Assembly: GCA_021513695.1 (NCBI GenBank)
Contig: CP084166.1
Span: 256,001-320,000 of the forward strand
Origin: Candidatus Heimdallarchaeum aukensis
GTDB taxonomy: Archaea; Asgardarchaeota; Heimdallarchaeia; Heimdallarchaeales; Heimdallarchaeaceae
Direction: 5' to 3'
DNA: 64,000 nt
How positions within the stretch are numbered: position 1 is the stretch's first letter; each line of letters starts with the position of its first letter. Position numbers and translations under genes: made by a program. The notes under the pieces are model-generated. The model searched no databases and was not told the DNA's origin. It was given only the letters and a program-made list of their open reading frames with translations. Below are positions 1,780-37,400 of this stretch, piece after piece.

Positions 1780-1990
1780 CTGTCTTGCAAGAGAGAAAAC
1801 TAAAGGAAGTTTAATCTCTTGAACTCAACCAAGCCATACAATGCCATGAAGGGGTTGAGACAGACATCATACACGAATCGTGGGAATCATAAAGAAGAAA
1901 AGAACTAAAAACTCTTTTCTTCACTCCACGAGAGACAAAAAAGAAAGAATTACTCCTATAATAGAGAAGGAGTTAAGTTCTTTTTTGTCT
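1780..1990 (-). ncRNA. candidate TnpB guide RNA (omegaRNA/reRNA) and right-end region of the IS200/IS605-type element
   Basis: GC-rich, non-coding block immediately 3' of the tnpB stop and continuous with it on the minus strand. In IS200/IS605 elements the omegaRNA overlaps the tnpB 3' end and extends into the right end. No fold was computed. Confidence 0.35.
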
Positions 1991-5678: not shown

Positions 5679-6830
5679 GGAGAGTGTGAGTATAGTGTAA
5701 ATGTATTTTGCAGATATGGGTTTACACTACACTCTCCATACTAGTAGATTTTTTTTCATATTAAAATATTTTTTGTTTATCTCACGACTGTTTACTCTAT
5801 CCACGTTGGTAACAAATAAATAGAAAGTGGGTTACGAGGGTAAATGATGTATTATGAACAAACCCAAACGTAACCTAGAGAGACTAAGAAAGATTGTGGT
5901 TAAAAAAGCTTTGGAAGGAGAGAAGATAAAAGAGGTAGCTCACAGGTTTATGGTGAGTAGGAAGTTTGTTTACAAGTGGTTGAAGAGGTTCAGAGAGAAC
6001 CCTGAAGGAGAATGGTGGAAGAATAGATCATCTAGACCTAAAACTATACACAGGAAAGTGGATGAGGAGTTAAGAGAGAAGATAAGGGAGTTAAGAGTAA
6101 AGCAAGGAATGAACGTGGAGAAGATAGTTTATCTGTTGAAGAAAGAAGGAAGAGCATTATCGCGAAACACAGTAGTTAAAGTAATAGGAGAGTTAGGTCT
6201 TCCTCTGTGGAGTAATAGAAAAAAGAGAAACAGAACTCAATACAAGAGTTTTGAACGCTCTAGCCCTAACGAACTCTGGCAGATAGATGTGAAAGGACCA
6301 TTCTGGATAGAAGAACAAGGACAACACCTTTATCTCATAACCTTGATAGACGACCACTCACGATTCTGTCTGGGAGCTAAACTCCACCCTTTTGCACCGA
6401 AAAAAGAGCAGATAATAAGTTTGTTAGAAGGAGCAATAGAAAAATATGGACACCCCGAGTCTATCCTCACGGACAATGGAGCACTCTTCTACTCCGTTAG
6501 AGGAGGAACAAGTACCTTCTCCCGTTGGTGTCAAACAGAAGGAATAAAACACATCAGATCTAGAGTTTTTCACCCCGAAACATGCGGAAAAGTAGAAAGA
6601 CTACATGGAACCATCATCCGTGAGATGAAAAGACTAGGACTAACCTACTGTAACTCCGACCTCTCCTTCTACCGCTCTTACTACAATTTTAGCCGTCCTC
6701 ACCAGTCTCTTAACCTCCTTACCCCTGGAGAAAAATTTATGAATCACCCCTACGTTTCTCTAGTGCCCAAAAGTGTAACCCAGGTCTATTGAGTGAACAT
6801 GTTTATCTCACGACCTTTAAAATATTTAAA
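5679..6830 (+). mobile_element. IS481-like insertion sequence (approximate extent)
   Basis: Transposase gene flanked by the 14-bp direct repeat GTTTATCTCACGAC at 5775..5788 and 6801..6814. A 17-bp-stem imperfect hairpin at 5679..5737 lies upstream. Clean terminal inverted repeats could not be identified by eye. Confidence 0.45.
5854..6792 (+). CDS. IS481-like DDE transposase/integrase (rve core with N-terminal HTH)
   Basis: 312 aa. N-terminal HTH (KEVAHRFMVSRKFVYKWLKRF). DDE core: WQIDVKGPF (D), LITLIDDHSRF (D), ILTDNGALF, HPETCGKVERLHGT (E). Codon usage GC-richer than the host. Confidence 0.8.
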   Translation: MNKPKRNLERLRKIVVKKALEGEKIKEVAHRFMVSRKFVYKWLKRFRENPEGEWWKNRSSRPKTIHRKVDEELREKIRELRVKQGMNVEKIVYLLKKEGRALSRNTVVKVIGELGLPLWSNRKKRNRTQYKSFERSSPNELWQIDVKGPFWIEEQGQHLYLITLIDDHSRFCLGAKLHPFAPKKEQIISLLEGAIEKYGHPESILTDNGALFYSVRGGTSTFSRWCQTEGIKHIRSRVFHPETCGKVERLHGTIIREMKRLGLTYCNSDLSFYRSYYNFSRPHQSLNLLTPGEKFMNHPYVSLVPKSVTQVY

Positions 6831-9577: not shown

Positions 9578-10669
9578 ATGACAACAGTTGAAGAGAAAGC
9601 AAAAATAGAAACGAGTACTAATCAATTGATGGAGTTTTTAGAAGAAGTTTCAGGTCTTTCTGCAGCACAAAAAAAGCGAGTTTACAAGACTCTCGTTGAT
9701 TTTGGGATAACTCACCCTTTAGCTTTTAAAAATCGAACAGTTAAAGAACTTACAAGAATAGATGGAATAAGTGAAAATGTAGCAGAAAAAATAGTTGAAC
9801 ACGCTAATCCTTCAAAAAAAGGTGAACTACTATTCAAGTCATTAGCTGAAGTAAAGAAAGAAGAAGATTCAACTATTATGATAAGTACTGGTTCAAAAAG
9901 ATTAGATGAATTACTAGGTGGAGGAATAAGTTTAGGAACTCTAGTAGAATTTTATGGTTCTCCCCAAAGTGGAAAAACCCAATTGTGTTATACAATTGCA
10001 GCAAATACTTTATTGGAAATTGGAGGAGTATTATGGTTAGATACAGAAGGAAGTTTTAGACCTTCAAGATTAGAACAAATATTATTTTATCTTGAAGAAA
10101 AAAAGAAAGAAAAAATAGATGAAAAGCAAAAAGAGAAAATAAATAGCCAATTTAATGTAGCTACAGTCAGAACTCTTGCACAATTAGAACTAGCTCTACA
10201 ACAAGTAGAAAAAGTAATCACTGCTTATGATGTGAAATTGTTAGTTGTAGATAGTCTAATGGATATTTTTAGAGCAGAGTATGGAGGACTAGGAGAATTG
10301 GCTGAAAGACAAAAACATCTAAATGTGGTTGTACACAAAATGATGAAACTAGCTGACGCATATAACATAGCTGTCGTATATACAAATCAAGTCATGGCTA
10401 ATCCAGATCCTTTTGCTACTGCTTTAGATAAAGTTCAGCCTGTAGGAGGTTTCGTTTTAGGTCATGCTAGTGATATACGCATCTGGTTACGAAGAGCCAC
10501 TTCAGCAACAAAAAAGAAATATGACGCTCCAAATGCAAGAAGGGCAATGATTACAGATTGTGGGTGGTTACCTATGGAAGAAACTATTTTCTCTATCGGA
10601 GCTTTTGGAATATGTGATGTTGAAGAAGAGAGTGAAATGAAAGAAGAAGCAAATATTGAAGAGAAATAA
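9578..10669 (+). CDS. radA: DNA repair and recombination protein RadA (archaeal Rad51/RecA homolog)
   Basis: 363 aa. N-terminal HhH domain (TVKELTRIDGISENVAEKIVEHA). SGSKRLDELLGGGISLGTLVEFYGSPQSGKTQLCYT Walker A. LLVVDSLMDIFRAEY Walker B region. VVYTNQV and the GG loop are also present. Lys-rich insertion EEKKKEKIDEKQKEKINSQ. Confidence 0.85.
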   Translation: MTTVEEKAKIETSTNQLMEFLEEVSGLSAAQKKRVYKTLVDFGITHPLAFKNRTVKELTRIDGISENVAEKIVEHANPSKKGELLFKSLAEVKKEEDSTIMISTGSKRLDELLGGGISLGTLVEFYGSPQSGKTQLCYTIAANTLLEIGGVLWLDTEGSFRPSRLEQILFYLEEKKKEKIDEKQKEKINSQFNVATVRTLAQLELALQQVEKVITAYDVKLLVVDSLMDIFRAEYGGLGELAERQKHLNVVVHKMMKLADAYNIAVVYTNQVMANPDPFATALDKVQPVGGFVLGHASDIRIWLRRATSATKKKYDAPNARRAMITDCGWLPMEETIFSIGAFGICDVEEESEMKEEANIEEK

Positions 10670-20848: not shown

Positions 20849-22264
20849 ATGAACAACAAAGAGAAAAATCAAAAACTATCCTTTTTAAAAAATCAATATA
20901 GTAGACTACTCGATAAATTATCAAAGTCAATTGTAGTAAAAATCAGAGAACAAGGAAAACTCCCTTTCTTTTTAGTAGTTTTAATTTGGATAGTTTTCTG
21001 GGGAAGCTCCTTTTACTTTATTACAGTCTTTATGCCTGTTAATTTGTTGTGGTTAAGAGTATTCTTACCTGTATTTATTTCTCTTATTGTTGTTAATGCT
21101 TCAACAGAATTAGGAAAAAAGGTAGTGGGTTATCATAATGAAAAAGAAGAGAAAGTTGAGAAAGAAAGTTCTTCTTCTCTCTTAAGTGAAGAAAAGGACA
21201 TTTCTACAAAAGAAGGTTATTCTTTGAAATCAACTTTCATTCTTCGTGATAAGAAAGGGAAAAAAATTTTTCTTATTAATAAAGGCAAAATTATTCCTGT
21301 TTTTTTGGTTAGCATATTGAGTACAGGAAACAAAGAAAAAGGATACACATTTTCTTCTTTGTTGAATTATCCTTTAAGAAATGAAATGAAAGAAATAGAA
21401 TTTTCAGTTTTAGACACAGATAAAGGAGAATATTTGCTTTTTCTAGGAAAAGAATACAAAACTAAAAACAAAAATTATACAGAATTATTAAAGGAAAATG
21501 AACAGTTTTTCTCAAAAATAGAGATTATAGTTGCTGAATTAAAGAGAGACAATAATTTAGAATTAGAAGCTGTTGAAGATTCAATACTTAATGAGCTTTT
21601 TCCTCTTTATTCTGAAGTATTATGTTGTAAAAATGAAGACACTAACAAAAAGGAACAAAAAATAGAAGAAAAAAATCATCTACAGTTAAAGAGTGAAAAT
21701 AATAATCTAAATAATGCAAATAATGGAAAAGAATATAATCAAAATGGTGAGAGCAGTAATAGATTCAGACCTTTTTCAGTTAAAACTGAACTTACACCAT
21801 ACCAATTAACGAAGGTTGCAGAAAAAAAAGAACTACTATTATCTGAACTCACTTATTCTTTTGATAATTTCATTGATATGTCTAAAGTATTTTATAAAAA
21901 AGCTCTTGAACATCAATTGAACGCAAAGTTTCCTATCTCCGAGGATAATTTTCTTAAACTTATACAACTCTTTGTAGAAAAGAATAAGTATGAATTCTTT
22001 TATCCAAGTTTCTTTAAACTAGAGAAGTATGAATCTTTCAAAGTCTTTGAAACTCCTAGTTCAGAAGAGATAGAAGAGTTTTCTGAAGAACTAGTAAAAG
22101 AATGTATGTTTACTAATTTAGATACTGAAGTAAAGAAAGAGTTGCATTCCTTCCTTACTCAAAAAATCAAAAATAGGAAGCATAGGCAAGAAGTAAAACC
22201 TGTAGGAATTAAAGTATCTTCTACAATTCCTAGGCCATCAGTAAAATCTTTATCAGAATCTTGA
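20849..22264 (+). CDS. membrane-anchored hypothetical protein
   Basis: 471 aa. Two N-terminal TM helices (LPFFLVVLIWIVFWGSSFYFITVF; LRVFLPVFISLIVV), then a long charged/low-complexity domain. Confidence 0.4.
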   Translation: MNNKEKNQKLSFLKNQYSRLLDKLSKSIVVKIREQGKLPFFLVVLIWIVFWGSSFYFITVFMPVNLLWLRVFLPVFISLIVVNASTELGKKVVGYHNEKEEKVEKESSSSLLSEEKDISTKEGYSLKSTFILRDKKGKKIFLINKGKIIPVFLVSILSTGNKEKGYTFSSLLNYPLRNEMKEIEFSVLDTDKGEYLLFLGKEYKTKNKNYTELLKENEQFFSKIEIIVAELKRDNNLELEAVEDSILNELFPLYSEVLCCKNEDTNKKEQKIEEKNHLQLKSENNNLNNANNGKEYNQNGESSNRFRPFSVKTELTPYQLTKVAEKKELLLSELTYSFDNFIDMSKVFYKKALEHQLNAKFPISEDNFLKLIQLFVEKNKYEFFYPSFFKLEKYESFKVFETPSSEEIEEFSEELVKECMFTNLDTEVKKELHSFLTQKIKNRKHRQEVKPVGIKVSSTIPRPSVKSLSES

Positions 22265-22273
22265 GGAGATTGA

Positions 22274-22909
22274 ATGATTGAAATAGTTTTTTTGAATTTC
22301 TTGAATCTCTTTGTTAAAATATGGCTATCAGCTCTTTTAATTAATATTCTACTTTCCACTCTCTTAAAACCAATTTATAAACATCTGTTGGCAATAGGCT
22401 TGGTTTTCAATTTACCAATTAAGCGACTATTTTATTGGATCTATAGAGTACCCATTGAGAATATAGATTGGGAAAACGGTCTAATTAGAACAAAGAAAGT
22501 GAATAATATGGATTGTCTAGCAACTACAGTTGTGATCATGCCTGTATTTATTTTAAGCTACTTATCTAGTTGGTTATTCTATTTTGCAGGTAAAATCTAT
22601 CCCTATGGTTACAAGTTCTTTGGAATTGTTCTTTATATTGTCGCTTCGTTAAGTCTAGCTTTCAGTATTCCTAACTTTGAGGAATTGAAATTGTTTAATA
22701 ACATTAATCTTCATTCCTCTTTGGTCTATTTACTAAAATGGGTATTTGTAGTTATAGTTGTCTTTTCAATAGTTGAGTTTACTTCTATCTCTCTTGATGT
22801 ATTAACTACAGTGATATTAGTTCTTTTAGCTACTCCATTTTATAGTTATAAAGAAGATGAAGAAAATGTAGAGAATATTAAGAAAATTATTGGTGATCCA
22901 TTTGCATAA
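22274..22909 (+). CDS. integral membrane protein
   Basis: 211 aa, about 5 hydrophobic helices. Overlaps the next gene start by 20 nt. Confidence 0.4.
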   Translation: MIEIVFLNFLNLFVKIWLSALLINILLSTLLKPIYKHLLAIGLVFNLPIKRLFYWIYRVPIENIDWENGLIRTKKVNNMDCLATTVVIMPVFILSYLSSWLFYFAGKIYPYGYKFFGIVLYIVASLSLAFSIPNFEELKLFNNINLHSSLVYLLKWVFVVIVVFSIVEFTSISLDVLTTVILVLLATPFYSYKEDEENVENIKKIIGDPFA

Positions 22910-23525
22910 ATGGACTCTTTCCAAAAATGAGCGAATGATACATCTTTATGGTCCCCCAGCAAGTGGTAAGACTACTTTAGCAATTCAATTATCTAGAAAA
23001 GTCTTTCCTCGCTCAACAATTTATTTCATTACTTCGCATAGAAACGCAATTACAAAAAGAGCAAAACAGATACTAAACAAGAATTATCTTAAAGAATTTT
23101 ATTTAATTAAAGTTTCTAGTTTAGATGATTTATTTGAAAAAATTCAATCTATTAATAGCTTAGGAAAAACAATAGGATTGATTGTAATAGATTATATCTC
23201 TGATTTTGTTAGAGGGAAGCTATACAAGGAAGAAGTAAAAAACAAGGTAAGGAAGATATTAGAAAAACTTTTTATTTTCTCCTCACAAAAAGATTGTTTA
23301 GTTGTGATAGTCAATAGTTTTTCAATAAAAAATGAAGCTCCTTTGAATTCTTTAGTTGAAAGTTTTTGTGACATGTCAGTTTATTTGTCGATTAAAGATG
23401 ACAAATACAATTTGGAATCAAATGGTAAAAATATAAAAAGAACTTTTGTAGTCGATGAAAAAATTATTTCCAGCTTCGTTATTGATGAAAAAGGAATTAA
23501 AGATTTAATTATTGTGTCTGAATAA
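22890..23525 (+). CDS. radB: RadB-like short RecA-superfamily ATPase (archaeal RadA paralog)
   Basis: About 200 aa with no N-terminal HhH domain. HLYGPPASGKTTLAIQL Walker A matches RadB-type (GPyASGKTTLALQ). GLIVIDYISDFVR Walker B region. CLVVIVNSFS strand. ORF-track start is a TTG; an in-frame ATG lies at 22935. Confidence 0.65.
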   Translation: MVIHLHKWTLSKNERMIHLYGPPASGKTTLAIQLSRKVFPRSTIYFITSHRNAITKRAKQILNKNYLKEFYLIKVSSLDDLFEKIQSINSLGKTIGLIVIDYISDFVRGKLYKEEVKNKVRKILEKLFIFSSQKDCLVVIVNSFSIKNEAPLNSLVESFCDMSVYLSIKDDKYNLESNGKNIKRTFVVDEKIISSFVIDEKGIKDLIIVSE

Positions 23526-23585
23526 ATTTTTTTCCTTTAAATAGTATTCTTTAGATTAACTAATAAAAAAGGAAGTCAATGGTTA

Positions 23586-24056
23586 ATGTATTCAGAGCAA
23601 GAAGTGATAAGAAAAATAACAGAAACTTGGAAATTTGAAAATAAAGTATGCGTGAAAGAACTACAAATTCCTTTAGTAGGCAAAAATATCAATTATCCTT
23701 TTTTAGAAAATAGAAAAAGCATTCGTATAGATCTTGCTTGCTATGATATTGTATCTGATAAAATTATTTTTGTTGAAGCAGAAAATGGTCTGTGGCTTCC
23801 TCATCCCCAAATTTATAGACCTTTTTGTGATATGTTATATGTTGCTACTCCCTATGATGATAGTTACTATAGAGAAAAGCAACTTGAGTGGGCAAAAAAT
23901 GAAGGAATAGGAGTAATTGAAGTTCTTTATGATGGTTACATTATAGAAACATTAAAACCTGTAGTTTTTCCTGATTCGATGGATATCTCTTTAAGAGAAG
24001 AAGTTCTAGCACATTTTGTTAAGAAACTCAAAAAAAACGAAAAAATAGCTGATTGA
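23586..24056 (+). CDS. hypothetical protein, possible PD-(D/E)xK (restriction-endonuclease-fold, Hjc-like) nuclease
   Basis: 156 aa. IRIDLACYDIVSDKIIFVEAENG resembles the D...(E/D)xK core strands of Hjc (vDLvA....IEVK), but the lysine position is not conserved. Weak. Confidence 0.3.
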   Translation: MYSEQEVIRKITETWKFENKVCVKELQIPLVGKNINYPFLENRKSIRIDLACYDIVSDKIIFVEAENGLWLPHPQIYRPFCDMLYVATPYDDSYYREKQLEWAKNEGIGVIEVLYDGYIIETLKPVVFPDSMDISLREEVLAHFVKKLKKNEKIAD

Positions 24057-24113
24057 TTTTTTATTACTAATTTTTTCTCTCTTTTAAAAACAATTTTATT
24101 TATAATTTAGCTG

Positions 24114-27100
24114 ATGAAAGGAACTGCTATTGCCACATCAAAATTTCAAGGTAAGAATCAAGCTATTTATTCAATAAAAAAAGATGATAAAATTACTTTA
24201 TACTGTGCGTTCATTATTAGACCAAAAAAGAAAGAAGTTGAGAAAAAAGGAGATTATGAAAAAAAAACTACTATTTTTGTAACAGATACTAAAAGTCTTT
24301 TTTTGCCTTTGAATATTGATTCAAGTCTAAAAATTATGCTTCACCGCTTTATTTTACCAGCTAAACTCAGAAAAATAACAAAAGAAAAAAATAAAGGAAT
24401 AGAAATCTCTAGAAAAAAAGAAGAGAGTGAAGAAATCAATGTATTTTTAACTTATTATATCTTTAAAATCTCAAAAACTTATGATCTTACCGTAAATTTA
24501 CTTTCAATGAATACATTGTTAGAAGATTTTGCAGAAACTGTTAGATCTAATTTAAAAGAGTTGTTCTTATCTTTAGGAGCAGTAGGAAGAATAACAGGAG
24601 AATTATTAGAAAAAATCGTTTGTTTGAATGTTACAGATAAATCGTCTATTATCAATAACAACTCTAAAGAATTTTTAACAGAGCTTGCAAAAGAGTTTGT
24701 TGTAATAGAAAAAAGTACAGAAATCCAATCAATTTTCCTCCCTGGTCCTTCCGTAGATTTAAGAACTTCGAGTGTATTTTTTACTCCTTCAAGAATAGAA
24801 TCTGCTTTTCCTTTAGGGAAGACGGAAGAAGGTTTTCTTGTAGGCTTTCCTCCCTCTTTCTCTTACCCCATACTTTTGTGTGGAGATAAGAAAATAAGAA
24901 AAATTTTACTCTCCAAAATTTTAGAAAATTCATCTGCTAAATTTATTGTTTTAGGAGAGATAAATGGAAAAATAAGAAAAAAGAATGTAAAGTTAAGTTT
25001 AGGAGAGAATTTTACATTTAATATCTTATCTCCTATGTTTATGCGAAAAGTACTGTCAGAGAGAGATTATTGGCGTTATCTGAGTGATTTTCTACTCATA
25101 GTTAAAGAAGTAACCGAAGTTAGAAATGAAAATCTTTTACAAATTCCTGAAATAATTAAATTTTATATCCAAGAATATGAACAAAGTGAAGATAACCTCT
25201 TTACTCCTTTTGATTATAGTTCTGTAACTATTGACGATATTTATACAATGCTTACATCTGAACCTGGAGGATTAATAATTTCAGATTATCAATTAGCTGC
25301 TTTACGTTCTGTTTTTACTGATATTAGCGATAATTCAGTTAGCACGGTAACTAATATTAATGGAAAACATGGAATTGAAGCATTAATTGACCAGAACCAT
25401 ATAATTGACTTCAGTAAACATTCAATAAAAGTTAGAAAAATATTCGTTTATTCGTTATTGCTTCAACTTTATTTATATTTTCAAACAGATTTAATTTCTA
25501 AACCAGTAATAGTAGTAATCGACAATGCAGAATTATTCTTTTCAACTGAAGTTGAAAGAACTTTTATTTCAAAACTACTCACACTATTTGAATCTCTACC
25601 TGTAAATATTATCCTTTCAACAAGTTTTCCTTCTCATCTAGCTCTTACTGCTTTTGATTTAACAAATAATAGAATTATAGCTAATCTTCGCTCTGCTAAG
25701 TGTGCAAAATTAATTGCTGATTCACATAATTTATTAAAAGAACAGAAAGAAATGCTTCTTCGCCTTCCACAAAATTCCTTTCTTATCCTCCGGGAAGATT
25801 TTTTTGAGAAACCCTTTCTTGCTTACTTACAAAGAGAAGATCTAAATTTGTTTTCTAATTCCAGACGATTCAATCTTGAAAAATTGGATTCATTAGTAGA
25901 TATTGGAAACACTAGTGCAATTTTAGAAGATGAAAATAGAGTAATTGAACCTATTTTTGATGAAGAAGATCTTCTTCCTATTATGATTGATATTTTAAGA
26001 AAACTTGATTCTAAAGCTCAAAGGGGAATCAACTCTGAATCATTGGTTAATCTCTTTCCTGACTATCCTGCAATTGAAGTTAAGAATGCTGTAAAATTAT
26101 TAGAGTTAAGAGGATTGATTTTTCGTGAGACAGTTGATAAAGAAGGAAGAAAAGGTGAATTTTGGACAAAAATAAGTCCTTTAGGCAAGAAAATGTTATC
26201 TAGATTCGAGATTCAATCCATAGCAAAGAATGATAAAATTGACAAAGTTGAACGAAAAGAAGAGGAGATAACTATTTTAAAAAATGAACAAAGTCATAAT
26301 GAAAAAATATCTAACAAAAAGCAAAACAATGGAAAAAAAGATTCTTTAGAACAATCAGAAGTTATTAACCATTTAGAGAAGGTACAAAACAATTTAAAAA
26401 ATAGTAGGAATCCTGTTGATGCTTTTTTGGATTCAATAATGAAAGTTGAAAAAAAAGCCATACAAATATTCTCAAGAAAAGGTAAAAAGATAGGTAAAAT
26501 TTCAGATTTTTACATTTTGTTACATGACTTTATCCAAAAGGCAAAAGCTGTAGATTTCAATATTCAATCAGAGCTAAAAGAGTTTGAGCAGTACTTAAAC
26601 TCACTTTATGATGTTTTAGAAGATAGTGAATCCCTTGAACAAATGTCAGATGAAATATTAGAAAGAGTAATGAGAAAAGGATTAAATCTCTTAGATCAGA
26701 TACATGTTAAATGTTCTTTTGATAAGATCGAAAGAAACTCCAGTAATCTTCCAGAACTTCTTGAAAAAGAATTAAATTCTGATAAATGGGAAAACATTGA
26801 AACTAAATTTGATGATGAAGTAGTGAGTGATATTAAGCATAATATAAAGAATGACATACAATCAATGTTCTTAACTGATTCTGAAAAACAAGTTTTTCAG
26901 GTACTTAATCATGCATTAGAAGCTCCTAAAGACAGTTTTATTGATTATGCTAGAAAAGCTATAGCAAGACTAATGAAAATAAAAATGCAGTTTTACCCTA
27001 ATCTCGATGATAAAGAGTTTATTATTATTTTTGTAAGATTCTTTGAAAAAAATCAATTACCAATACCGTTTAATGAATCGATTCTGATGGTTGATGAACT

Positions 27101-27269
27101 AGCTTTTCTTAGCACAATTTCCAAACAAAAGAAAAAGGAAATAATCGCGAAAATAATAGAGGAAAATAACTCATTTGTGTTTGATTTAGATGATAAAAGT
27201 AAAGATAGTCTTGTTATTCAGTTAAAGGAAATTGTCTCAAAAAGTCTAAGAAAGTTAAAAGAGGAATAA
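24114..27269 (+). CDS. large hypothetical protein (1051 aa), possibly a degenerate P-loop NTPase-like domain plus a helical C-terminal half
   Basis: No canonical GxxxxGK[ST] found by eye. Walker-B-like PVIVVIDNAELFF and sensor-like IILSTSF blocks are present. The C-terminal 450 aa are charged and helical. Confidence 0.45.
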   Translation: MKGTAIATSKFQGKNQAIYSIKKDDKITLYCAFIIRPKKKEVEKKGDYEKKTTIFVTDTKSLFLPLNIDSSLKIMLHRFILPAKLRKITKEKNKGIEISRKKEESEEINVFLTYYIFKISKTYDLTVNLLSMNTLLEDFAETVRSNLKELFLSLGAVGRITGELLEKIVCLNVTDKSSIINNNSKEFLTELAKEFVVIEKSTEIQSIFLPGPSVDLRTSSVFFTPSRIESAFPLGKTEEGFLVGFPPSFSYPILLCGDKKIRKILLSKILENSSAKFIVLGEINGKIRKKNVKLSLGENFTFNILSPMFMRKVLSERDYWRYLSDFLLIVKEVTEVRNENLLQIPEIIKFYIQEYEQSEDNLFTPFDYSSVTIDDIYTMLTSEPGGLIISDYQLAALRSVFTDISDNSVSTVTNINGKHGIEALIDQNHIIDFSKHSIKVRKIFVYSLLLQLYLYFQTDLISKPVIVVIDNAELFFSTEVERTFISKLLTLFESLPVNIILSTSFPSHLALTAFDLTNNRIIANLRSAKCAKLIADSHNLLKEQKEMLLRLPQNSFLILREDFFEKPFLAYLQREDLNLFSNSRRFNLEKLDSLVDIGNTSAILEDENRVIEPIFDEEDLLPIMIDILRKLDSKAQRGINSESLVNLFPDYPAIEVKNAVKLLELRGLIFRETVDKEGRKGEFWTKISPLGKKMLSRFEIQSIAKNDKIDKVERKEEEITILKNEQSHNEKISNKKQNNGKKDSLEQSEVINHLEKVQNNLKNSRNPVDAFLDSIMKVEKKAIQIFSRKGKKIGKISDFYILLHDFIQKAKAVDFNIQSELKEFEQYLNSLYDVLEDSESLEQMSDEILERVMRKGLNLLDQIHVKCSFDKIERNSSNLPELLEKELNSDKWENIETKFDDEVVSDIKHNIKNDIQSMFLTDSEKQVFQVLNHALEAPKDSFIDYARKAIARLMKIKMQFYPNLDDKEFIIIFVRFFEKNQLPIPFNESILMVDELAFLSTISKQKKKEIIAKIIEENNSFVFDLDDKSKDSLVIQLKEIVSKSLRKLKEE

Positions 27270-27281
27270 AAAGGGAGAAGG

Positions 27282-29393
27282 ATGAATGAAATAGAGTTAA
27301 GTTCTGAAAAACTAGAGGATTTTCAACAGAGGTGTATGGAAACTTTTTTGAAAAAAGAAAATTGCCTTATTTCTTCTCCTTCTTCTACAGGAAAAACATT
27401 TCTAGTTAAAGAATATATTAAAAATTACATTATAGAAAACTACTCAACTATTCTACGATCTCCTAAAAAAATGAAAATAGTGCTACTGTTTCCTTATAAG
27501 GCGATTGCTATACAAGAATTTAACTCACTAGTCGATTTTGCAGAAAAAAAGATGATCAAGATATTCTTATCTGTTGGAGGAGTAAAGTTAAACAAAGAAA
27601 CAGTAATGGAAGCAAATATTATTGTTGGAACATTTGAAAAGTTTTACTTCATTTTGAATCTATTCCCTGAAATTCAAAAGAACTTGAAAATATTGGTAAT
27701 AGATGAATTTCACTTTTTAGGTTATAATAGGGGAAAAGTGATAGAAAGTATATTATTAAAAGTTAAGGAAAACAAAAATACACAGATTATTCTTTTATCC
27801 TCATCAATCGGGAATCCTGAGGAAATAGCAAGTTGGTTAGGCTTTAAACTTTTGCAATATAATAAACGCTTAGTACCGTTGGAATTGAATATAAAAAAAA
27901 TTGAAAAATCTCTTATACAAGAAATATTTTCAATCAGCAAAGCTAACTTACCTGCTATTATATTTCAAAACTCAAGATCTAAAGTAGAAAAATTAGCTCT
28001 AGAATTAGCAAAAAAAAGAAAAGATGTATTGATAAAGAATTTCGAAGAGTTTTTCGTAAATTCTCCTAACCTTATTTCAATAATGGAAGAAGTTTATTTC
28101 CCTGATAAACTAAAAGAAGCAATTTCAAAGAGAGTGGCTTATCATCATGCAGGTTTAAGTGATATAGTTAGAGTATTTGTAGAACAATTATTTCTTTCTG
28201 GAGAGATTGATTACTTGATTTCTACTTCCACTCTGTCAGCTGGAATAAATCTTCCAGCTAAAATGTCAATTTTTGTTATAGAAAGAAAACAATCTGAAGT
28301 TGATAATAATTTAATTTTTCAAATTCTGGGGAGAGCAGGAAGATTTGAGTTTCAAGATAAAGGAATAGGAATTCTATTAATAAGACCAGCTTATTTGAAA
28401 GAATATAGCGACAAACTTTTTGACCAAAGAGGAAAACCTATTTACAGTAGTTTAAAAAGCCAATTTTTTGACTATGATTTTTTGATCAAATATTTTCTGG
28501 TAGAAATCGCATTTTCTAAGGAACCTGTTTCAGTAAGGATAGAAGATTTATTAAAAAAAATCGAGAATTCACTATGGTTTTATAGTAACAAAGAAATATT
28601 CTTAGTATTTAACTCTAAAGATGTTCATTATGCACTTTTTTCTCAAGCCTACTCAAGTTTGGATTATGAAGAGATAGTTGATTATTATGAGAAATTAGAT
28701 GAAGCTTTTGGTATAAAGCCTTCTAATTTACAACTCGTTTCTAAGCAAGAAAAAGGCAAAGGTAACTTCTCTTTTATAATTTTAGAGAATGAAAAAAAAT
28801 ACAAAGTAATTATGAATTTAGAAAGAAGACAATGTTCTTGTCAGTCAAAGTACAGCAATTATCTTTGTAGACATCAGCGTTTTTTGATTAAGATGTATCC
28901 TTTCATGAAAGAATATTGGTTAAATAAATATGGAATAATCGATTGGCTGATCGATAATGGTTTTTTAGTTAGAAGCAAAGGAATGAAGGTTAATCCTACT
29001 TTATTGGGAAAAATTTCTGCAAAATTTTTTATTCACCCTTATTCTTTTCTTCATTTTCTTCATTTATTAATTATCTATCCTAACATTAACTTTTCCTCTT
29101 TTTTTACTAAAGTTGTTCTATTCGATGAACAAATAAAGAGAGATATTAAGTCAAATGAACTAACAAATATACAAGCTTTGCAAATATTTCAACTATTAGT
29201 AAAACAAGAACCATTAACAATATGCTCAAAATACAATATTTCAGACAGTCTATTAGAAAATTGGCAAGAAATATATACCAAGTACAAGAGTTTATTTTTT
29301 GAATTAAAGAAACTTATGGGAAAAAATCTAGCAAAAGGGAACTTTACAAATAATTTCCTCACGAAAAATGAAGTTGAAGAAACAATTCGTTAA
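27282..29393 (+). CDS. Ski2/Hel308-like SF2 DExH helicase with an embedded SWIM-type zinc finger
   Basis: 703 aa. Motif I SSPSSTGKT, Ia PYKAIAIQ, II VIDEFHFLG, III LLSSSIG, V TSTLSAGINLPA (compare Hel308 TPTLAAGVNLPA), VI ILGRAGRFEF. SWIM signature CSCQSKYSNYLCRH (CxCx8CxH) near residue 520. Confidence 0.7.
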   Translation: MNEIELSSEKLEDFQQRCMETFLKKENCLISSPSSTGKTFLVKEYIKNYIIENYSTILRSPKKMKIVLLFPYKAIAIQEFNSLVDFAEKKMIKIFLSVGGVKLNKETVMEANIIVGTFEKFYFILNLFPEIQKNLKILVIDEFHFLGYNRGKVIESILLKVKENKNTQIILLSSSIGNPEEIASWLGFKLLQYNKRLVPLELNIKKIEKSLIQEIFSISKANLPAIIFQNSRSKVEKLALELAKKRKDVLIKNFEEFFVNSPNLISIMEEVYFPDKLKEAISKRVAYHHAGLSDIVRVFVEQLFLSGEIDYLISTSTLSAGINLPAKMSIFVIERKQSEVDNNLIFQILGRAGRFEFQDKGIGILLIRPAYLKEYSDKLFDQRGKPIYSSLKSQFFDYDFLIKYFLVEIAFSKEPVSVRIEDLLKKIENSLWFYSNKEIFLVFNSKDVHYALFSQAYSSLDYEEIVDYYEKLDEAFGIKPSNLQLVSKQEKGKGNFSFIILENEKKYKVIMNLERRQCSCQSKYSNYLCRHQRFLIKMYPFMKEYWLNKYGIIDWLIDNGFLVRSKGMKVNPTLLGKISAKFFIHPYSFLHFLHLLIIYPNINFSSFFTKVVLFDEQIKRDIKSNELTNIQALQIFQLLVKQEPLTICSKYNISDSLLENWQEIYTKYKSLFFELKKLMGKNLAKGNFTNNFLTKNEVEETIR

Positions 29394-29431: not shown

Positions 29432-31276
29432 TTGAAGCTGATGAAAAGAGATAATTTCCTACTTACATTTTTAATTTTAATTATAGTATGTACAATTTTA
29501 CTTATTCCGCTTTATTTTACTGAAGCTCACTATTTAGAACAAGAGGAAGAAAAAAAGCAAATAAAAAATGAGCTTCAATCTACTATCCTTATTCCTCATG
29601 ATATTGTCTTTAATTTCACAGATAAACTTTCTAAATACACTTACTCTTTTGTTCAGAATCTTACATTAAGTGGATTATATGGTTTAGAAATTCTGTTTAA
29701 AACTGGTGGGAGTTTAGCTTTAAGTGATACCTTAAAAGTAAAGATAGTTATGGAGGATAGAATAAATATCAGCTTCACAATAGATAAATTATTTCAAGAC
29801 TCCAATATTCATTCTTTAACAAAAAGTCTTTATTGTGAAAATATTGGAGAAGAAGCAAAGATAACAATATATTTTGAAGGACAATGTTTCATTGGAAAAG
29901 AGGGTAATCTAACTCTTTTCAAAACTATTAATCTTTATTCTTATGATATTCTATCTTTAAAAACAGAAAAAATTATTAGTCCTGACGTTATCCCTCATTC
30001 TATCTCTTTTTCAGGGAATTCTTTCTCCAAAAAGACTTTTTCTGTAAAATCATTTTTTAATGTAGAAAATACAAACATCACAAAAATTAAGTTAAATTTT
30101 ACATTTAATACAAATGATTTTGTTTCACTAGAAAGAAAAATAACTTTTCAGATAGGTTCAAACCTTACAGAAAAGGATTTTAGTTCAGGATTAAACACAA
30201 TTTTATTGTCATTAGATTGTGGAAGTGATCTAAATATTTTGAATATCTCTTTTACAGTAGGTTATAGCTCTGATATCATACATTTAGAGGATTTTAGTTT
30301 AAGTATTGAAGTAGAGAAAGAAGAAGAAACAAGTAAAGAAAGAGAAATTCTTGAATTTAAAGAATGGGAAGGAGATAAGATAGATTTAACTTTTGACATC
30401 TCAATTCTAAAAAATGAGCAGAGTTCTAAGGAGTTAATAATAAACTTAAATCTTAGTTGTGGTTTTGAAGGTGCAACTGTAACTCCTTACATTGAATTTA
30501 GAATTATTTCTGGAATATATACTATTTATACAGGAAAAGTAATGAGTTATGAACAAAGCGAAGAAGAGTTAATAAAAATAAATACTTATACCTACACTTA
30601 CAATAAACCTCTATTAGTTAACTTTTACGCTAAATTAGAAAATAGTGGGAAAGGACAGATCTTTATTTACAATTCTTCTAATCTTACTGCTTCAAAAATC
30701 CCACAAATGTCTTCTAAAGGTTTATTTAGGGAAGTAGAATCAGAGAAAAACGTCTACACTCCTCAACTAGGTGCAGTCATCCTAAATTACTACGATGTCT
30801 TTTTCAATGATTATTCATTAACAATAGATTATGTTTTTAATTTGACTTTTACCCTTTTCACAGATTATGATGAAGTTTTTGATAGAATAAATGTTGGAAT
30901 AACAATAGGCGTAAATACTTCAATAAATAAGATTTTTAGTAAACCTGGTAAGATCTCAATTACTGAAGACGTTAAAATCTATCAAGGATATAACGAGGTT
31001 AAAATCAAGTTAACAATTTATGGTTCAGGAACCTATGTCTCTCTCAGAAATATAACTTATAGACTTAATCCGATTAAAGATTTTTCTTTTCAAGATGAAA
31101 ATCAAACAATTAGTTCGGTAAATATTCCCTTGATAAAACCCCCTTATACAATAAGTTTAGGAATAAGTTCGATTTTAGGTCAATGGGTAATTGGAGGAGT
31201 ATTCGCTAGAGTGTTTAACAGTAGCAAAAAGAAAAATAAACTCTCTAAAAATATGAAATATAAGTTAGAGTTTTAA
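29432..31276 (+). CDS. bitopic membrane/surface hypothetical protein
   Basis: 614 aa. N-terminal anchor FLLTFLILIIVCTILLIPLYF and C-terminal hydrophobic segment ISLGISSILGQWVIGGVFA followed by a KKKNK tail. Middle region beta-rich and Asn/Ser/Thr-rich. Confidence 0.4.
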   Translation: MKLMKRDNFLLTFLILIIVCTILLIPLYFTEAHYLEQEEEKKQIKNELQSTILIPHDIVFNFTDKLSKYTYSFVQNLTLSGLYGLEILFKTGGSLALSDTLKVKIVMEDRINISFTIDKLFQDSNIHSLTKSLYCENIGEEAKITIYFEGQCFIGKEGNLTLFKTINLYSYDILSLKTEKIISPDVIPHSISFSGNSFSKKTFSVKSFFNVENTNITKIKLNFTFNTNDFVSLERKITFQIGSNLTEKDFSSGLNTILLSLDCGSDLNILNISFTVGYSSDIIHLEDFSLSIEVEKEEETSKEREILEFKEWEGDKIDLTFDISILKNEQSSKELIINLNLSCGFEGATVTPYIEFRIISGIYTIYTGKVMSYEQSEEELIKINTYTYTYNKPLLVNFYAKLENSGKGQIFIYNSSNLTASKIPQMSSKGLFREVESEKNVYTPQLGAVILNYYDVFFNDYSLTIDYVFNLTFTLFTDYDEVFDRINVGITIGVNTSINKIFSKPGKISITEDVKIYQGYNEVKIKLTIYGSGTYVSLRNITYRLNPIKDFSFQDENQTISSVNIPLIKPPYTISLGISSILGQWVIGGVFARVFNSSKKKNKLSKNMKYKLEF

Positions 31277-31473: not shown

Positions 31474-34400
31474 ATGACGTCATCTGTCATGTCAACAACT
31501 GTCCTAAAATCATTATTGTTAATTCTAGTTCTTGCTCCAACAATAGTAATGATAAATAATAATGAAAATAATTTATTTAACCTACAAAATGAAGAAAATA
31601 GTAAGAATGAGATTTATTCATTAAACAACAGTAATGAGAATTTTATTGACATATCGAATAAAAAAAATAATGATAATATTCTAGAAAACGACGTAAGAGC
31701 TAGTAATAAGGATAGAATACTTTTATCTTCTCTTCCAGATAGCGCTAATTGGGTAGAAAAAAATGAGTCATTTACTGGTAGATTTTATCAATCATTAAGT
31801 GATTTAGATGAAGATAAAATCCCAGAGCTTATAACTCTTTCTGATACTAATGGGCAAATTCAAGATATTGGAGAACCTGGTTATACAAAATTTTTGGAAT
31901 ATAACGAAACAACAGGAACTTTTTCAAATGAACTATTGTCTATTAGTACAGCGGGCCCTACAATTTATTATCCTGTTGAAGCTTATGCTGATAATGCTGT
32001 ATATTTGCTCGAAAAGACTTTTTCAGCAGATAATTCTGATCATATTTTTGTTTGGAAAAAATGGAATGGAACTGATATTATCAACGTTTCTTCAAATATC
32101 TATATTAAAAATGATGGTTTATATGATTATGACAGTTATGATTTTGATTTAGATGGAAATGTAGATTTAGTTTGTAATTGGGGTTATTATTCAGGTGTAT
32201 GGACAAGATTAGAGTTAGAGAATGGGCTTTTTTCTTCAACTGATTATTCATTTTATAACGGGGGCAGATCTATTTTTGTAGAAGATTTGGATAACGATGG
32301 TAATCCAAATGTAGCTGTACTATATGCTGTTGATAAAATAAATATTTATAATTATAATCCGAGTATAAATGATTTCCAATTTCAACAACAAATTACTGGT
32401 ATTAGTTCATTAAAAGTAATGTATCCTTGGGATTATGACCATAATGGCTATACTGATATTATTGTTGTTTCTCATGAGACTGGAGTTGTTATTTATTCAT
32501 ATGAATGGGATAGTTCTTCTTCTTCTTATGTTCAAAAACTATCATATACCATTCCTGAAGCGACAGATAGTCAATGGACTGGTGTTCCTAGGTATTGTGA
32601 TCTTCTTGGAGATGGAGAAATTACAATGGTTTTTGATATTGTCCGTAATTCACGTTCTGAAATAGGTTTTATCACTTATGAAAATAATAACTTTGCTTTT
32701 AATTCTATTTATAATCATACAGATAGTTCGAAAATTTATTTTACATCTGCTCAAATTGATAATGATCCAGAAAGAGAAATTCTAGTAAATTATGAAAAGA
32801 ATGTAGATGAATTCTATACGAAAATATTAGATTTGGAAGCGTTTAATGAGGGTCGGTATTTTGAAACTTTTGACTCTGATGTTTTTCTTTCTAATCCAAA
32901 TATGAAATATTCTTGGAGCAGGAGTAAAGATAATGTAGTCGTATCTAATGGATCTTTAAAAATTTTAGCTGATGAAACAAATGATGATTATGCAAAACTA
33001 CAACTTTTTTCTGGAACTAAATCAATACAAATCAGAGCTAGAGTAACTTTAAATGGTGACAAATTCAACTATCCTGAAATAATAATTAAAAATGACAATA
33101 ATGAAATAGTAGCCAATTTGACATTTAGTCAAATAGATGGATGGCAAACACCACAGTTAAGCTATTTAAGTGATTACAGAGGACCAACAATAAAAGGCGT
33201 TTGGTATGATTTAATGATCAACTTTGGTTTTAATTCTCTTACATTTTATACAAAGAAGCCTTATCAAGATTATTGGCGCTATATTGCCAGATTTAATATT
33301 AATGGAAATTTAAACGAATTAATTTTTTATCAACGCAATAATGCAGAAATAGAAATGGATTCTATTGACATTTTTTATAGTTATGACAGTGATAATGATG
33401 GGTTAAGTGATGATAGCGAAACTCTAATCTATCAAACTGATCCTCTAGATCCTGATACTGATGACGATGCTTATACAGATGGAGATGAAATAGAAACAGG
33501 AACAGACCCACTTGATCCTTTAAGTTATCCCAAATCTTACTCCTCAATTTTTTCAGAAAATTTTGAAACAGGAATATTAGATGAAAATAATTGGAGTTTG
33601 TATTCTTCCAATAATGTTGGAGAATGGACTATTGTTAAATATCAAGGAAACTATTGGGTACAGCATCTTTATTCAGGTAGTGTGATAGGACATACTGATC
33701 CTAACATACTTGTTTCATCTCCTCTAAATTTTGGTGACAATTTTACTATTTCATATGTAGTTAGACCTCTCACTTATCAATACGATGAGGTTGGAATTTT
33801 CTTTCTCTGTCCTAATGGTACAGGTTTCAGACTAGGAACTTTTAATGTATATCATGATTTTATAAGAATAGGTGCTTCTAGCTATTATGATTTTGCTTTC
33901 ACAGCTGATTTAGATAAGACTTATTATATGAAAGTTACTTATGTAGATGATACAGTTACCGTTTTTTGTAATGACTCTCAAATTGCACAGGTAAATAATA
34001 TAGACCTCCCATCTGAAGGATCATTAGGATTAAGGAGTAGAGGATATTATGGTCAAGCTTCTCATGCTCTTTATGACAATATTACAATACATAGTACAGC
34101 TTTGTTAAATGAGACCTTTGATTTTGATATCTTTGACACTTATTCAAATTGGATAAGAGATACTACTTCTTTTACTGTTGATACAACCAATAGTTGGTTA
34201 CATAAAGGTACAACAGGTAGTTATAATCATATTGCAAAATATAATAAAACAATACAATTTCCATTCACTATAAATGTAAGAGGAAGATTGGTAAGTGGAG
34301 GATATGATTATACATTTCCTGGATTATATCTCTGTTATCCAAATGGTTCGTCAATGTCAATTGTTTTTAATGGAGGAGGTACAGGAGGAGACTATTGGAC

Positions 34401-37400
34401 ATTTTGGGGTCGCAGAGATTCGGACTATGGTCCTCAAGCAGAAAATGTATGGTGGAATATTAAAGTTCTTTTGGATAATGGAACTCAATTTCTCTACTCC
34501 AAAAGTGACACTGATAGTAGTTGGATTTTAATTGCTAAAACAAATCTTTTATTTGAAAGTAATCATATTTATGTAGGTTTTAGTAGTCCTTGGGACGCTG
34601 TTTTTGACATAGATTATATTGAGATAATTTCGAGGAGTACAAATCCAATTGATACTGATTCTGATGGATTACTAGATGAGGATGAGATAAATATTTACGG
34701 TACTAACCCTTCTAATTCTGATACTGATTCTGATGGTATGCCTGACGGTTGGGAGGTTACTAACAGTTTGGACCCCTTAACTGATGATTCTTCTTTAGAC
34801 GCTGATTCTGATGGTTTAACTAATTTAGAAGAATACTCTTCTGGTACTGACCCCAATAATAGTGATTCTGATAATGATGGTTTAACTGATGGTTCAGAGG
34901 TTAATACTTACAATACTGACCCCAATGATTCTGATACTGATTCTGATGGTATGCCTGACGGTTGGGAAGTAAACTACAGTTTGGACCCCTTAACTGATGA
35001 TTCTTCTTTAGACGCTGATTCTGACAGTTTAACTAATTTAGAAGAGTATCAAAATAACACTGACCCCAATAATAGTGATTCTGATAATGATGGTTTAACT
35101 GATGGTTCAGAGGTTAATACTTACAATACTGACCCCAATAATTCTGATACTGATTCTGATGGTATGCCTGATGGTTGGGAAGTAAACTACAGTTTGGACC
35201 CCTTAACTGATGATTCTTCTTTAGACCCCGATTCTGACAGTTTAACTAATTTAGAAGAGTATCAAAATAACACTGACCCCAATAATAGTGATTCTGATAA
35301 TGATGATTTAACTGATGGTTCAGAGGTTAATACTTACAATACTGACCCCAATAATTCTGATACTGATTCTGATGGTATGCCTGATGGTTGGGAAGTAAAC
35401 TACAGTTTGGACCCCTTAACTGATGATTCTTCTTTAGACGCTGATTCTGATGGTTTAACTAATTTAGAAGAATACTCTTCTGGTACTAACCCTTCTAATT
35501 CTGATACTGATTCTGATGGTATGCCTGATGGTTGGGAAGTAAACTACAGTTTGGACCCCTTAACTGATGATTCTTCTTTAGACCCCGATTCTGACAGTTT
35601 AACTAATTTAGAAGAGTATCAAAATAACACTGACCCCAATAATAGTGATTCTGATAATGATGATTTAACTGATGGTTCAGAGGTTAATACTTACAATACT
35701 GACCCCAATAATTCTGATACTGATTCTGATGGTATGCCTGATGGTTGGGAAGTAAACTACAGTTTGGACCCCTTAACTGATGATTCTTCTTTAGACGCTG
35801 ATTCTGACAGTTTAACTAATTTAGAAGAATACTCTTCTGGTACTAACCCTTCTAATTCTGATACTGATTCTGATGGTATGCCTGATGGTTGGGAGGTTAC
35901 TAACAGTTTGGACCCCTTAACTGATGATTCTTCTTTAGACGCTGATTCTGATGGTTTAACTAATTTAGAAGAATACTCTTCTGGTACTGACCCCAATAAT
36001 AGTGATTCTGATTCTGATGGTATGCCTGACGGTTGGGAAGTAAACTACAGTTTGGACCCCTTAACTGATGATTCTTCTTTAGACGCTGATTCTGATGGTT
36101 TAACTAATTTAGAAGAGTATCAAAATAACACTGACCCCAATAATAGTGATTCTGATAATGATGGTTTAACTGATGGTTCAGAGGTTAATACTTACAATAC
36201 TGACCCCAATGATTCTGATACTGATTCTGATGGTATGCCTGACGGTTGGGAAGTAAACTACAGTTTGGACCCCTTAACTGATGATTCTTCTTTAGACGCT
36301 GATTCTGACAGTTTAACTAATTTAGAAGAGTATCAAAATAACACTGACCCCAATAATTCTGATTCTGATAATGATGGTTTAACTGATGGTTCAGAGGTTA
36401 ATACTTACGGTACTGACCCTAATAATTCTGATTCTGATAATGATGGTTTAACTGATGGTCAAGAGGTTAATACTTACGGTACTGACCCTAATAATTCTGA
36501 TACTGATGGAGACAGTATGCCTGATGATTGGGAAGCAAATAATAATTTAGATCCTTTAATTGATGATTCTTCTTTTGATGCTGATTCTGACGGTTTAACA
36601 AATTTAGAAGAATACTCTTCTGGTACTGACCCCAATAATAGTGATTCTGATAATGATGGTTTAACTGATGGTTCAGAGGTTAATACTTACTCTACAGATC
36701 CATTAGATTCTGACACCGACTCTGATGGTATGCTTGATGGTTGGGAGGTTACTAACAGTTTGGACCCCTTAACTGATGATTCTTCTTTAGACGCTGATTC
36801 TGACAGTTTAACTAATTTAGAAGAGTATCAAAATAACACTGACCCCAATAATAGTGATTCTGATAATGATGGTTTAACTGATGGTTCAGAGGTTAATACT
36901 TACAATACTGACCCCAATGATTCTGATTCTGATAATGATGGTATGCCTGACGGTTGGGAGGTTACTAACAGTTTGGACCCCTTAACTGATGATTCTTCTT
37001 TAGACGCTGATTCTGATGGTTTAACTAATTTAGAAGAATATTCTTCTGGTACTGGCCCTACTAATTCTGACACTGATTCTGATGGTATGCCTGACGGTTG
37101 GGAGGTTACTAACAGTTTGGACCCCTTAACTGATGATTCTTCTTTAGACACTGATTCTGATGGTTTAACTAATTTAGAAGAATACTCTTCTGGTACTGAC
37201 CCCAATAATAGTGATTCTGATTCTGATGGTATGCCTGACGGTTGGGAGGTTACTAACAGTTTGGACCCCTTAACTGATGATTCTTCTTTAGACGCTGATT
37301 CTGACAGTTTAACTAATTTAGAAGAATACTCTTCTGGTACTGACCCTAATGATTCTGACACTGATTCCGATGGCATACCTGATGGTTCAGAGGTTAATAA

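Follow-up and report, generated by a model that had tools for sequence, protein, structure and literature searches.

The stretch of DNA analysed here (hereafter the window) comprises 64,000 nucleotides of contig CP084166.1 of Candidatus Heimdallarchaeum aukensis (positions 256,001 to 320,000 of the forward strand; all coordinates below are counted from the first letter of the window). It contains an operon of six genes, g1-g6, the last of which encodes a helicase that combines a Hel308/Ski2-like motor with a predicted SWIM-type zinc finger located inside the winged-helix (WH) domain. The product of this open reading frame is identical to an NCBI protein from the same organism annotated only as "DEAD/DEAH box helicase". 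An earlier note, made from the sequence alone, had drawn attention to the finger. The features of the gene are as follows (aa, amino acid residues of the product; HTH, helix-turn-helix).

27282..29393 (+): g6, final gene of the operon, for the SWIM-containing helicase of Hel308/Ski2-like type, 703 aa
27321..28421 (+): motor domains RecA1 and RecA2, ~aa 14-380, bearing motifs I, II (DEFH), III, IVa (YHHAGL), V and VI (from Pfam, motif conservation and hhalign)
28464..28607 (+): winged-helix domain, part 1, ~aa 395-442, ending ...SLWFYSNKE (by hhalign it pairs with the beginning of the WH domain in Hel308-type proteins)
28608..28928 (+): insertion of ~107 residues in the winged-helix domain, aa 443-549, with helices, a three-stranded beta-sheet, a zinc knuckle and a helix
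28800..28889 (+): core of the SWIM-type zinc finger, aa 507-536, matched by Pfam PF04434
28833..28874 (+): CxCx8CxH motif CSCQSKYSNYLCRH, residues 518-531 (C518, C520, C529, H531; from the translation)
28929..29036 (+): winged-helix domain, part 2, ~aa 550-585, YGIIDWLIDNGFLVRS...NPTLLGKISAKFFIHP, recognition helix and wing
29037..29321 (+): ratchet-like helical domain, shortened, ~aa 586-680, with an HTH-like element (ICSKYNISDS) and a long helix (655-678)

The helicase motor and the nested zinc finger

The translation bears out the earlier statement that all Ski2-like motifs of superfamily 2 (SF2) are present, namely SSPSSTGKT (residues 31-39), DEFH (141-144), SSS (173-175), YHHAGL (287-292), TSTLSAGINLPA (315-326) and GRAGR (350-354). 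GKT, DEFH, SSS, YHHAGL, TSTL..G.NLPA and GRAGR are invariant or nearly invariant among 18 orthologues, and YHHAGL corresponds to motif IVa, (F/Y)HHAGL, as defined for Hel308 (PMC10484726). Pfam reported the DEAD domain at aa 14-180 (E-value 3e-20) and Helicase_C at aa 274-355, while the hhalign comparison with a Hel308-type profile gave a probability of 100% over aa 7-477, an alignment that ends inside the WH domain. The top NCBIfam matches were the Hjm/Hel308 models (models scored: NF040935, PRK00254, PRK01172, PRK02362), with 131-161 bits against equivalog cut-offs of 887-1216 bits, which the helicase does not reach, the match spanning only residues ~10-465. The PDB sequences matched were those of ASCC3, Brr2, Hjm and Hel308, and the order of domains (RecA1, RecA2, winged helix, ratchet/helical bundle) follows the Ski2-like ring layout. 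Judged by its sequence, the motor is a Hel308/Ski2-like class SF2 helicase with all motifs intact.

The CxCx(n)CxH signature that had been placed near residue 520 lies at residues 518-531, and its four presumed ligands (C518, C520, C529, H531) are unchanged in all 18 orthologues (alignment at 37-83% identity). The non-ligand residues S525, N526, Q532 and R533 are likewise invariant and R516 nearly so. The three cysteines of the motif are the only invariant ones in the family, with C18 and C28 varying widely and C648 replaced by Ser in two members. Among the open segments of the window that reach 100 aa or more, the pattern C.C.{6,25}C.H occurs a single time, and it turned up in 10 of 200,000 shuffles of the helicase sequence (chance 5e-5). 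The spacing between CxC and CxH (n=8) is inside the range typical of SWIM domains (n=6-16; PMC5727457).

The domain search with PF04434 that the earlier note had proposed came out partly in favour of the assignment. The window protein matched the SWIM model at aa 507-536 with an E-value of 0.0071 and 16.3 bits, under the gathering score of 19.6 bits, but the isolated modules of two orthologues exceeded it (P0018: 25.3 bits; P0004: 20.2 bits). Others scored 12.8-19.0 bits, and 10 of the 18 members matched at E<=0.1. SWIM is the sole Pfam family that recurs in the inserted region across the orthologues, and its matches run from position 1 to 35 of the 38-position model and take in the strands ahead of the CxC. 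Structure prediction, also suggested by the note, agreed with these matches: AlphaFold2 modelled the whole helicase with a predicted local distance difference test score (pLDDT) of 84.2 and a predicted template modelling score of 0.84, and residues 455-550 alone with a pLDDT of 85.4, and both models contain three beta-strands, a short CxC strand, a loop and then a helix that starts at the CxH (strands 483-490, 495-502, 505-512 and 517-518; helix 530-538; local pLDDT 82-93). The CxCxnCxH with n=8, the strands before the CxC and the helix starting at the CxH are shared with the SWIM domains (PF04434) of bacterial SNF2-family ATPases, proteins derived from MuDR/FAR1 transposases, ZSWIM proteins and MEKK1.

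Alternatively, the motif could be a zinc knuckle of independent origin, without homology to SWIM domains. This would agree with the structure searches, which retrieved no solved SWIM domain significantly, with the profile of the module, which matched nothing meaningful among PDB sequences, and with the single-sequence Pfam scores, most of which fall under the cut-off. We consider independent origin quite improbable, however, given that the only family recurring in the module is SWIM, with two members over the gathering score, that the matches extend over nearly the entire model including the strands before the CxC, and that the spacing of the ligands is typical. Moreover, the only match of the module outside the family among 1.84 billion proteins, P0068 (E-value to the module 4.3e-5), is an 86-aa stand-alone SWIM-like metagenome protein, encoded on a 978-bp contig, with the motif CSCx9CKH and itself 18.8 bits on the SWIM model. 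Sequence and conservation lend good support to the assignment as a SWIM-type zinc knuckle, in which the three Cys and the His would be expected to coordinate a single Zn2+ ion.

The finger had been described as following the helicase core, and in this respect the description has to be revised. The profile of the C-terminal half aligns with A. fulgidus Hel308 non-significantly but colinearly, residues 415-442 with Hel308 423-450, 562-593 with 464-493 and 628-686 with 555-613. The second of these blocks, in part 2 of the WH domain, is collinear with the Hel308 segment MVV..LAPTKLGSLVSRLYIDP (residues 464-493), and in the model part 2 forms a helix (552-558) and two strands (562-565 and 569-572). 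The two WH blocks are separated by 120 residues in the helicase vs 14 in Hel308; therefore, the SWIM module lies within a WH insertion of ~107 residues (aa 443-549) and is no appendage after the core. The insertion is predicted to be between the second helix of the WH domain and the recognition helix. The helicase ends 17 residues past the match to Hel308 residue 613, whereas Hel308 runs ~86 residues further, and the last 20 residues of the helicase (684-703) are disordered in the model. Hence, as far as this weak alignment and the model indicate, the C-terminal helix-loop-helix (HLH) domain 5 of Hel308 appears to have been lost.

Within the ratchet-like domain, the conserved segment NELS...C.KYNISDS (aa 631-650; 29172-29230) scores as a helix-turn-helix and is matched by Pfam HTH_28/HTH_23 in some orthologues. 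It also matches proteins composed of tandem HTH repeats (P0066, P0067, P0069), and its counterpart in the alignment with A. fulgidus Hel308 is ICAKYGIAPGDL of domain 4.

The protein thus shares with Hel308/Hjm, HELQ and the helicase domain of POLQ all SF2 motifs including IVa, the two RecA domains, the winged helix and a ratchet-like domain, but it departs from Hel308 in the 107-residue SWIM insertion in the WH domain, the shorter ratchet, the apparent lack of the HLH domain 5 and the fixed six-gene operon in which it is encoded. Inserted domains are not uncommon among lineage-specific helicases. The arch of Mtr4 and Ski2 is a module of ~250 residues with a KOW/beta-barrel on a helical stalk. 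Like the SWIM module, the arch is an accessory module inserted in the WH domain of a Ski2-like helicase, presumably projecting to bind partners or substrates (PMC10946056), but Mtr4 and Ski2 are eukaryotic RNA helicases, whereas the ~107-residue SWIM insert is carried by an archaeal protein whose closest relatives are DNA helicases. The arch and the SWIM insert showed no detectable relation in sequence or fold. The insertion point of the arch would have been used a second time, independently, with the WH domain of a Ski2-like helicase again accommodating an adaptor module.

Fusions of SWIM with SF2 enzymes were reportedly described by Makarova, Aravind and Koonin in 2002, with SNF2 ATPases as hosts and the finger as a terminal or separate domain; in contrast, a Hel308/Ski2-like helicase is the host here, with the finger nested in its WH domain. 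Because a SWIM-SF2 fusion is already known in bacterial SNF2 proteins, the novelty is limited to the host family and the insertion site and does not extend to the combination of SWIM with a helicase as such.

Relatives and distribution of the family

A search of 5.8 billion proteins retrieved 18 full-length or near-full-length relatives of the helicase (37-83% identity, 467-1525 bits), and all of those that bear an organism name are labelled Heimdallarchaeota or "Asgard group". The next match, a generic Ski2-like helicase, scored only 108 bits. Among 185,579 species (one genome each) we found 22 loci, 17 of them labelled Heimdallarchaeota and 5 labelled only "uncultured archaeon" or Promethearchaeati. 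The architecture, which the earlier note had taken to be a distinct one, is rare and confined to Heimdallarchaeota.

The profile of the C-terminal half, compared with 1.84 billion cluster representatives, matched 16 proteins, and about 10 clusters have the architecture. Eleven are family members or fragments thereof (nine below 1e-30, plus P0064 and P0065), and the short length and match position of P0063 suggest that it is another family fragment. The rest are the stand-alone SWIM-like protein P0068 and three proteins that match the C-terminal HTH-like element only. A viral or mobile-element origin was also considered, and it was rejected because no relatives were found in 2.9 million viral contigs.

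The phylogenetic placement that had been recommended was made with a rough neighbour-joining tree, in which the family is monophyletic and nearest to Hel308-type proteins, apart from the Mtr4/Ski2/HelY-type and DUF3516-type groups. In agreement with the claim that canonical Hel308 proteins carry no SWIM finger, PF04434 was not found in any Hel308-type match, and a 2024 survey of archaeal Ski2-like helicases, which distinguishes Hel308, ASH-Ski2 and Brr2-like groups, does not mention SWIM (PMC10946056). The literature searched for SWIM together with Asgard or Hel308 helicases contains no description of the architecture, and the paper on the H. aukensis genome is silent on the locus. The ASH-Ski2 proteins resemble the helicase in being archaeal (including Asgard) Ski2-like helicases with a Cys-rich putative zinc finger (PMC10946056). 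However, the finger of ASH-Ski2 is N-terminal and has four cysteines, while the SWIM finger is of the CCCH type and lies internally, within the WH domain; the N-terminus of the helicase contains only two cysteines, the variable C18 and C28, and has no finger of the ASH-Ski2 kind.

According to a more conservative interpretation, the protein is simply the Hel308 orthologue of this lineage, active in fork restart and anti-recombination, and the Cys/His residues form a structural metal site in a neutral insertion. The Hel308/Hjm models are indeed the closest known families, motif IVa (YHHAGL) is invariant, and the sequence examined at the locus revealed no further Hel308. We nevertheless regard a plain orthologue as rather unlikely. 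The scores are far under the equivalog cut-offs (161 vs 1216 bits) and the C-terminal half has no relatives outside the family in the 1.84 billion proteins, save P0068 and the three HTH-element matches. In addition, the invariance of S525, N526, Q532 and R533, which are not ligands, and the near-invariance of R516 suggest a conserved surface, and a strict association with an operon is atypical for Hel308.

The operon and its proposed function

The operon spans 20849-29393, and its six co-directional genes, separated by short gaps or overlapping, encode proteins of 471, 211, 211, 156, 1051 and 703 aa. Their order and similar sizes are kept in every related locus with enough flank, the helicase always being last. 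The other genes of the operon and the principal neighbours are listed below (TM, transmembrane).

20849..22264 (+): g1, first gene of the operon, 471 aa, two N-terminal TM segments (from synteny, alignment and hydropathy)
22274..22909 (+): g2, 211 aa, polytopic membrane protein with four or five TM segments (from hydropathy); its end overlaps g3 by 20 nt
22890..23525 (+): g3, divergent RadB-like RecA-fold ATPase, Walker A GPPASGKTT, Walker B LIVIDY
23586..24056 (+): g4, conserved orphan of 156 aa, invariant RIDLA...FVEAENG...HPQIY.PFC (from the alignment)
24114..27269 (+): g5, orphan of 1,051 aa found in Heimdallarchaeaceae only, with a P-loop-ATPase-like centre and an RPA32C-like winged helix at ~aa 623-676
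9578..10669 (+): RadA/Rad51-family recombinase (Pfam Rad51, 175 bits, and HHH_5; NCBIfam RadA, 230 bits vs a cut-off of 259)
14426-20791: giant immunoglobulin (Ig)-like (Big_1) surface protein, signal-like segment at the N-terminus and TM segment at the C-terminus
29432-31276: g7, anchored protein of 614 aa, downstream of the operon in the window

The RadB gene that the earlier note had mentioned next to the helicase is g3, and each of the genomes examined has a divergent RadB-like gene in this operon. Its product matches the NCBIfam RadB model TIGR02237 with an E-value of 2.5e-14 (53.6 bits; cut-off 172), and the profile search against the PDB returned RadB first (2cvf, 4.6e-10), followed by RadA, Rad57 and XRCC3. 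This co-encoding arrangement, previously undescribed, suggests a lineage-specific machine for recombination or DNA handling.

The operon also brings to light four conserved Heimdall-specific proteins that currently lack annotation, g1, g2, g4 and g5. No family matches were found for g1 in Pfam, NCBIfam, PADLOC or PHROGs, and Pfam searches with all orthologues of g2 gave only scattered matches at chance level, none of them consistent. For g4, nothing was found in Pfam, NCBIfam, PADLOC, PHROGs or the PDB, and Pfam over all its orthologues likewise gave chance-level matches only. The motifs RIDLA..YD, FVEAENGL, HPQIY.PFC and GIGIIE of g4 are, by eye, reminiscent of the restriction-endonuclease-like fold; we rejected g4 as a candidate PD-(D/E)xK nuclease, as it has neither profile support nor a match among solved structures. 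For g5, the Pfam family RPA_C matches 8 of 12 orthologues (best E-value 1.1e-5), and aa 458-558 match the PADLOC model mad8 (E-value 9e-9) and show a weak likeness to the C-terminal/Walker-B half of a P-loop ATPase, although the Walker A motif is deviant (LLCGDKKIR in the window protein, LLAGDKKTR in the consensus). The relatives of g5 in the 5.8-billion-protein search are family members only, no match was found in the PDB, and hhalign detected no relation to g3.

The matches to mad8, a weak one being found in g3 too, together with the similarity of the helicase to HamB (PADLOC HamB models, up to 116 bits; HamB in the PDB, E-value 1.6e-9), could be taken to mean that the operon serves in defence against viruses, with a Hachiman-like (HamB-type) helicase at its centre. 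We find this highly improbable. The HamB matches are confined to the generic Ski2-like motor, and the five other operon proteins include no HamA/DUF1837 or other PADLOC component, the weak mad8 similarity aside; the preprint on the MADS system, to which mad8 belongs, does not state what mad8 is. Furthermore, in all Heimdallarchaeaceae examined the cluster is single-copy, colinear and syntenic beside RadA and an XPD gene, a pattern of vertical inheritance unlike that of defence islands, and the viral contigs contain no relatives.

In most genomes RadA follows the helicase directly or within a few kb, and is in turn followed by a giant Ig-like surface protein of ~2,100 aa, so that the usual order is g7 - g1..g6 - RadA - Big_1, whereas the window and H. 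endolithica (L007) have the order RadA ... Big_1 - g1..g6 - g7. The order of the neighbourhood is thus permuted between genera (compare the window with L001, L006, L016 and L028), yet RadA and the surface proteins stay linked to the operon. Two contigs of the metagenome-assembled genome CAZJUB01 (L013 and L020) both carry the helicase-RadA-Big_1 arrangement, which probably reflects strain duplication in a co-assembled bin and not two gene copies.

The persistence of this linkage raises the possibility that the operon and the surface proteins form a membrane-anchored machine for DNA uptake or exchange. The Big_1 adhesin and g7 would then be outside the cell, g1 and g2 would provide a conduit, g5 and the helicase would act as cytoplasmic motors pulling in DNA, and the RadB-like protein and RadA would recombine it, the helicase being comparable in role to ComFA of bacterial competence or to CedB of the Ced system of crenarchaea. 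The two TM segments of g1 and the four or five of g2 are compatible with such a machine, as are the overlap of g2 and g3, which indicates translational coupling of membrane and soluble genes, the linkage of Big_1, g7 and RadA to g1-g6 despite the permuted order, and the signal-like and TM segments of Big_1. On the other hand, none of the components matches a known DNA-transport family (for g1, g2, g4 and g7, Pfam, NCBIfam, PADLOC and PHROGs were all negative), the Walker A motif of g5 is deviant, and the linkage of the surface proteins could be mere conserved synteny within one family. On balance, we deem DNA uptake an unlikely role.

The best explanation of the locus as a whole, to which we give slightly better than even credence, is that of a Hel308-class motor with a WH-nested SWIM adaptor in a recombination operon. 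Hel308/HELQ helicases and Rad51 paralogues have a central but poorly understood part in regulating homologous recombination. Hel308 suppresses recombination while promoting repair (PMC10484726), and its human orthologue HELQ binds the RAD51-paralogue complex BCDX2 (PMC7776575), a tie to recombination proteins that the helicase would share. We propose that the motor is an active 3'-5' SF2 helicase that would move, as Hel308 does, on single-stranded DNA of branched recombination or replication intermediates. Since the SWIM module is inserted at the same site as the Mtr4/Ski2 arch, it would most likely protrude from the helicase ring as an adaptor, with the probable task of docking a partner protein or DNA within a recombination/repair complex. 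It may tether the motor to an operon partner, most plausibly the RadB-like g3 or g5, or to a duplex or branch point, and such tethering could couple unwinding to the loading or removal of RadA-family proteins, i.e. to the control of RadA-family filaments.

The eukaryotic Shu2/SWS1 proteins offer a parallel, as their SWIM domain binds Rad51 paralogues (PMC5727457, PMC6316741): in both cases SWIM is coupled to a divergent Rad51/RadA paralogue, in eukaryotes via a physical complex and here via the operon. However, Shu2/SWS1 are small stand-alone proteins with the signature CXC...Xn...CXHXXA (PMC6316741), whereas the finger described here is within a helicase. The sequence at the position of CXHXXA is C-R/K-H-Q-R-F/Y in 18/18 orthologues, and because the signature alanine is F or Y in all of them, the helicase is not a member of the Shu2/SWS1 family.

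Several points weigh against the recombination-adaptor explanation. The SWIM score of the window's own protein falls short of the Pfam cut-off, and the loss of domain 5 and the exact boundaries of the insertion partly rest on a statistically non-significant alignment. The link of the helicase to the RadB-like g3 and to RadA is one of genomic linkage only, and F/Y stands in place of the Shu2/SWS1 signature alanine (PMC6316741). Finally, a plain recombination-mediator model leaves the two membrane proteins and the linkage to giant surface proteins unexplained.

The Heimdall archaea are among the closest known relatives of eukaryotes, and here a SWIM finger in a Hel308-like helicase is always co-encoded with a RadB-like paralogue, usually with RadA beside it. 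If the finger does mediate contact with the RadB-like protein, the operon would offer a simple prokaryotic model of the coupling of helicases to recombinase mediators, as well as a data point on how the arrangement of SWIM/HELQ and Rad51 paralogues in eukaryotes originated. A testable link to the control of recombination in eukaryotes arises from the lineage of the host and the site of the insertion together with the conserved Rad51-paralogue pairing. We can further speculate that g1-g6 is a recombination/DNA-exchange machine specific to Heimdallarchaeaceae, in which SWIM recruits the RadB-like paralogue, as a counterpart or forerunner of the eukaryotic SWIM- and HELQ-Rad51-paralogue links, and which maybe operates at the membrane with the giant surface proteins for DNA uptake or exchange; this combination of claims is decidedly improbable in its entirety.

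Flanking regions of the window

Scans with Rfam models and for tRNAs returned nothing in the window. About 10 kb downstream of the operon, at 39670-41481 (-), lies a gene for an XPD/Rad3-type helicase with the domains DEAD_2 and Helicase_C_2, which is also syntenic in L005/L026 (49% identity) and in H. endolithica (L007, 93% identity).

A few kb upstream of RadA are a TnpB/Cas12f-like gene (1989-3443 (-); TNB domain, E-value 1.6e-9) and an rve-family integrase gene with HTH domains (5854-6792 (+)), and the G+C content has a local peak of 0.364 at 2-4 kb in this mobile-element region. Both genes may be connected to the local rearrangement.

The interval 31474-39414 encodes a protein of 2,646 aa with dozens of near-identical D-x-D-x-D-G repeats (thrombospondin type 3-like, calcium-binding) and a C-terminal TM segment. 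The G+C content over the repeats is 0.35-0.38, and the matching interval in H. endolithica (L007) is ~4.5 kb shorter.

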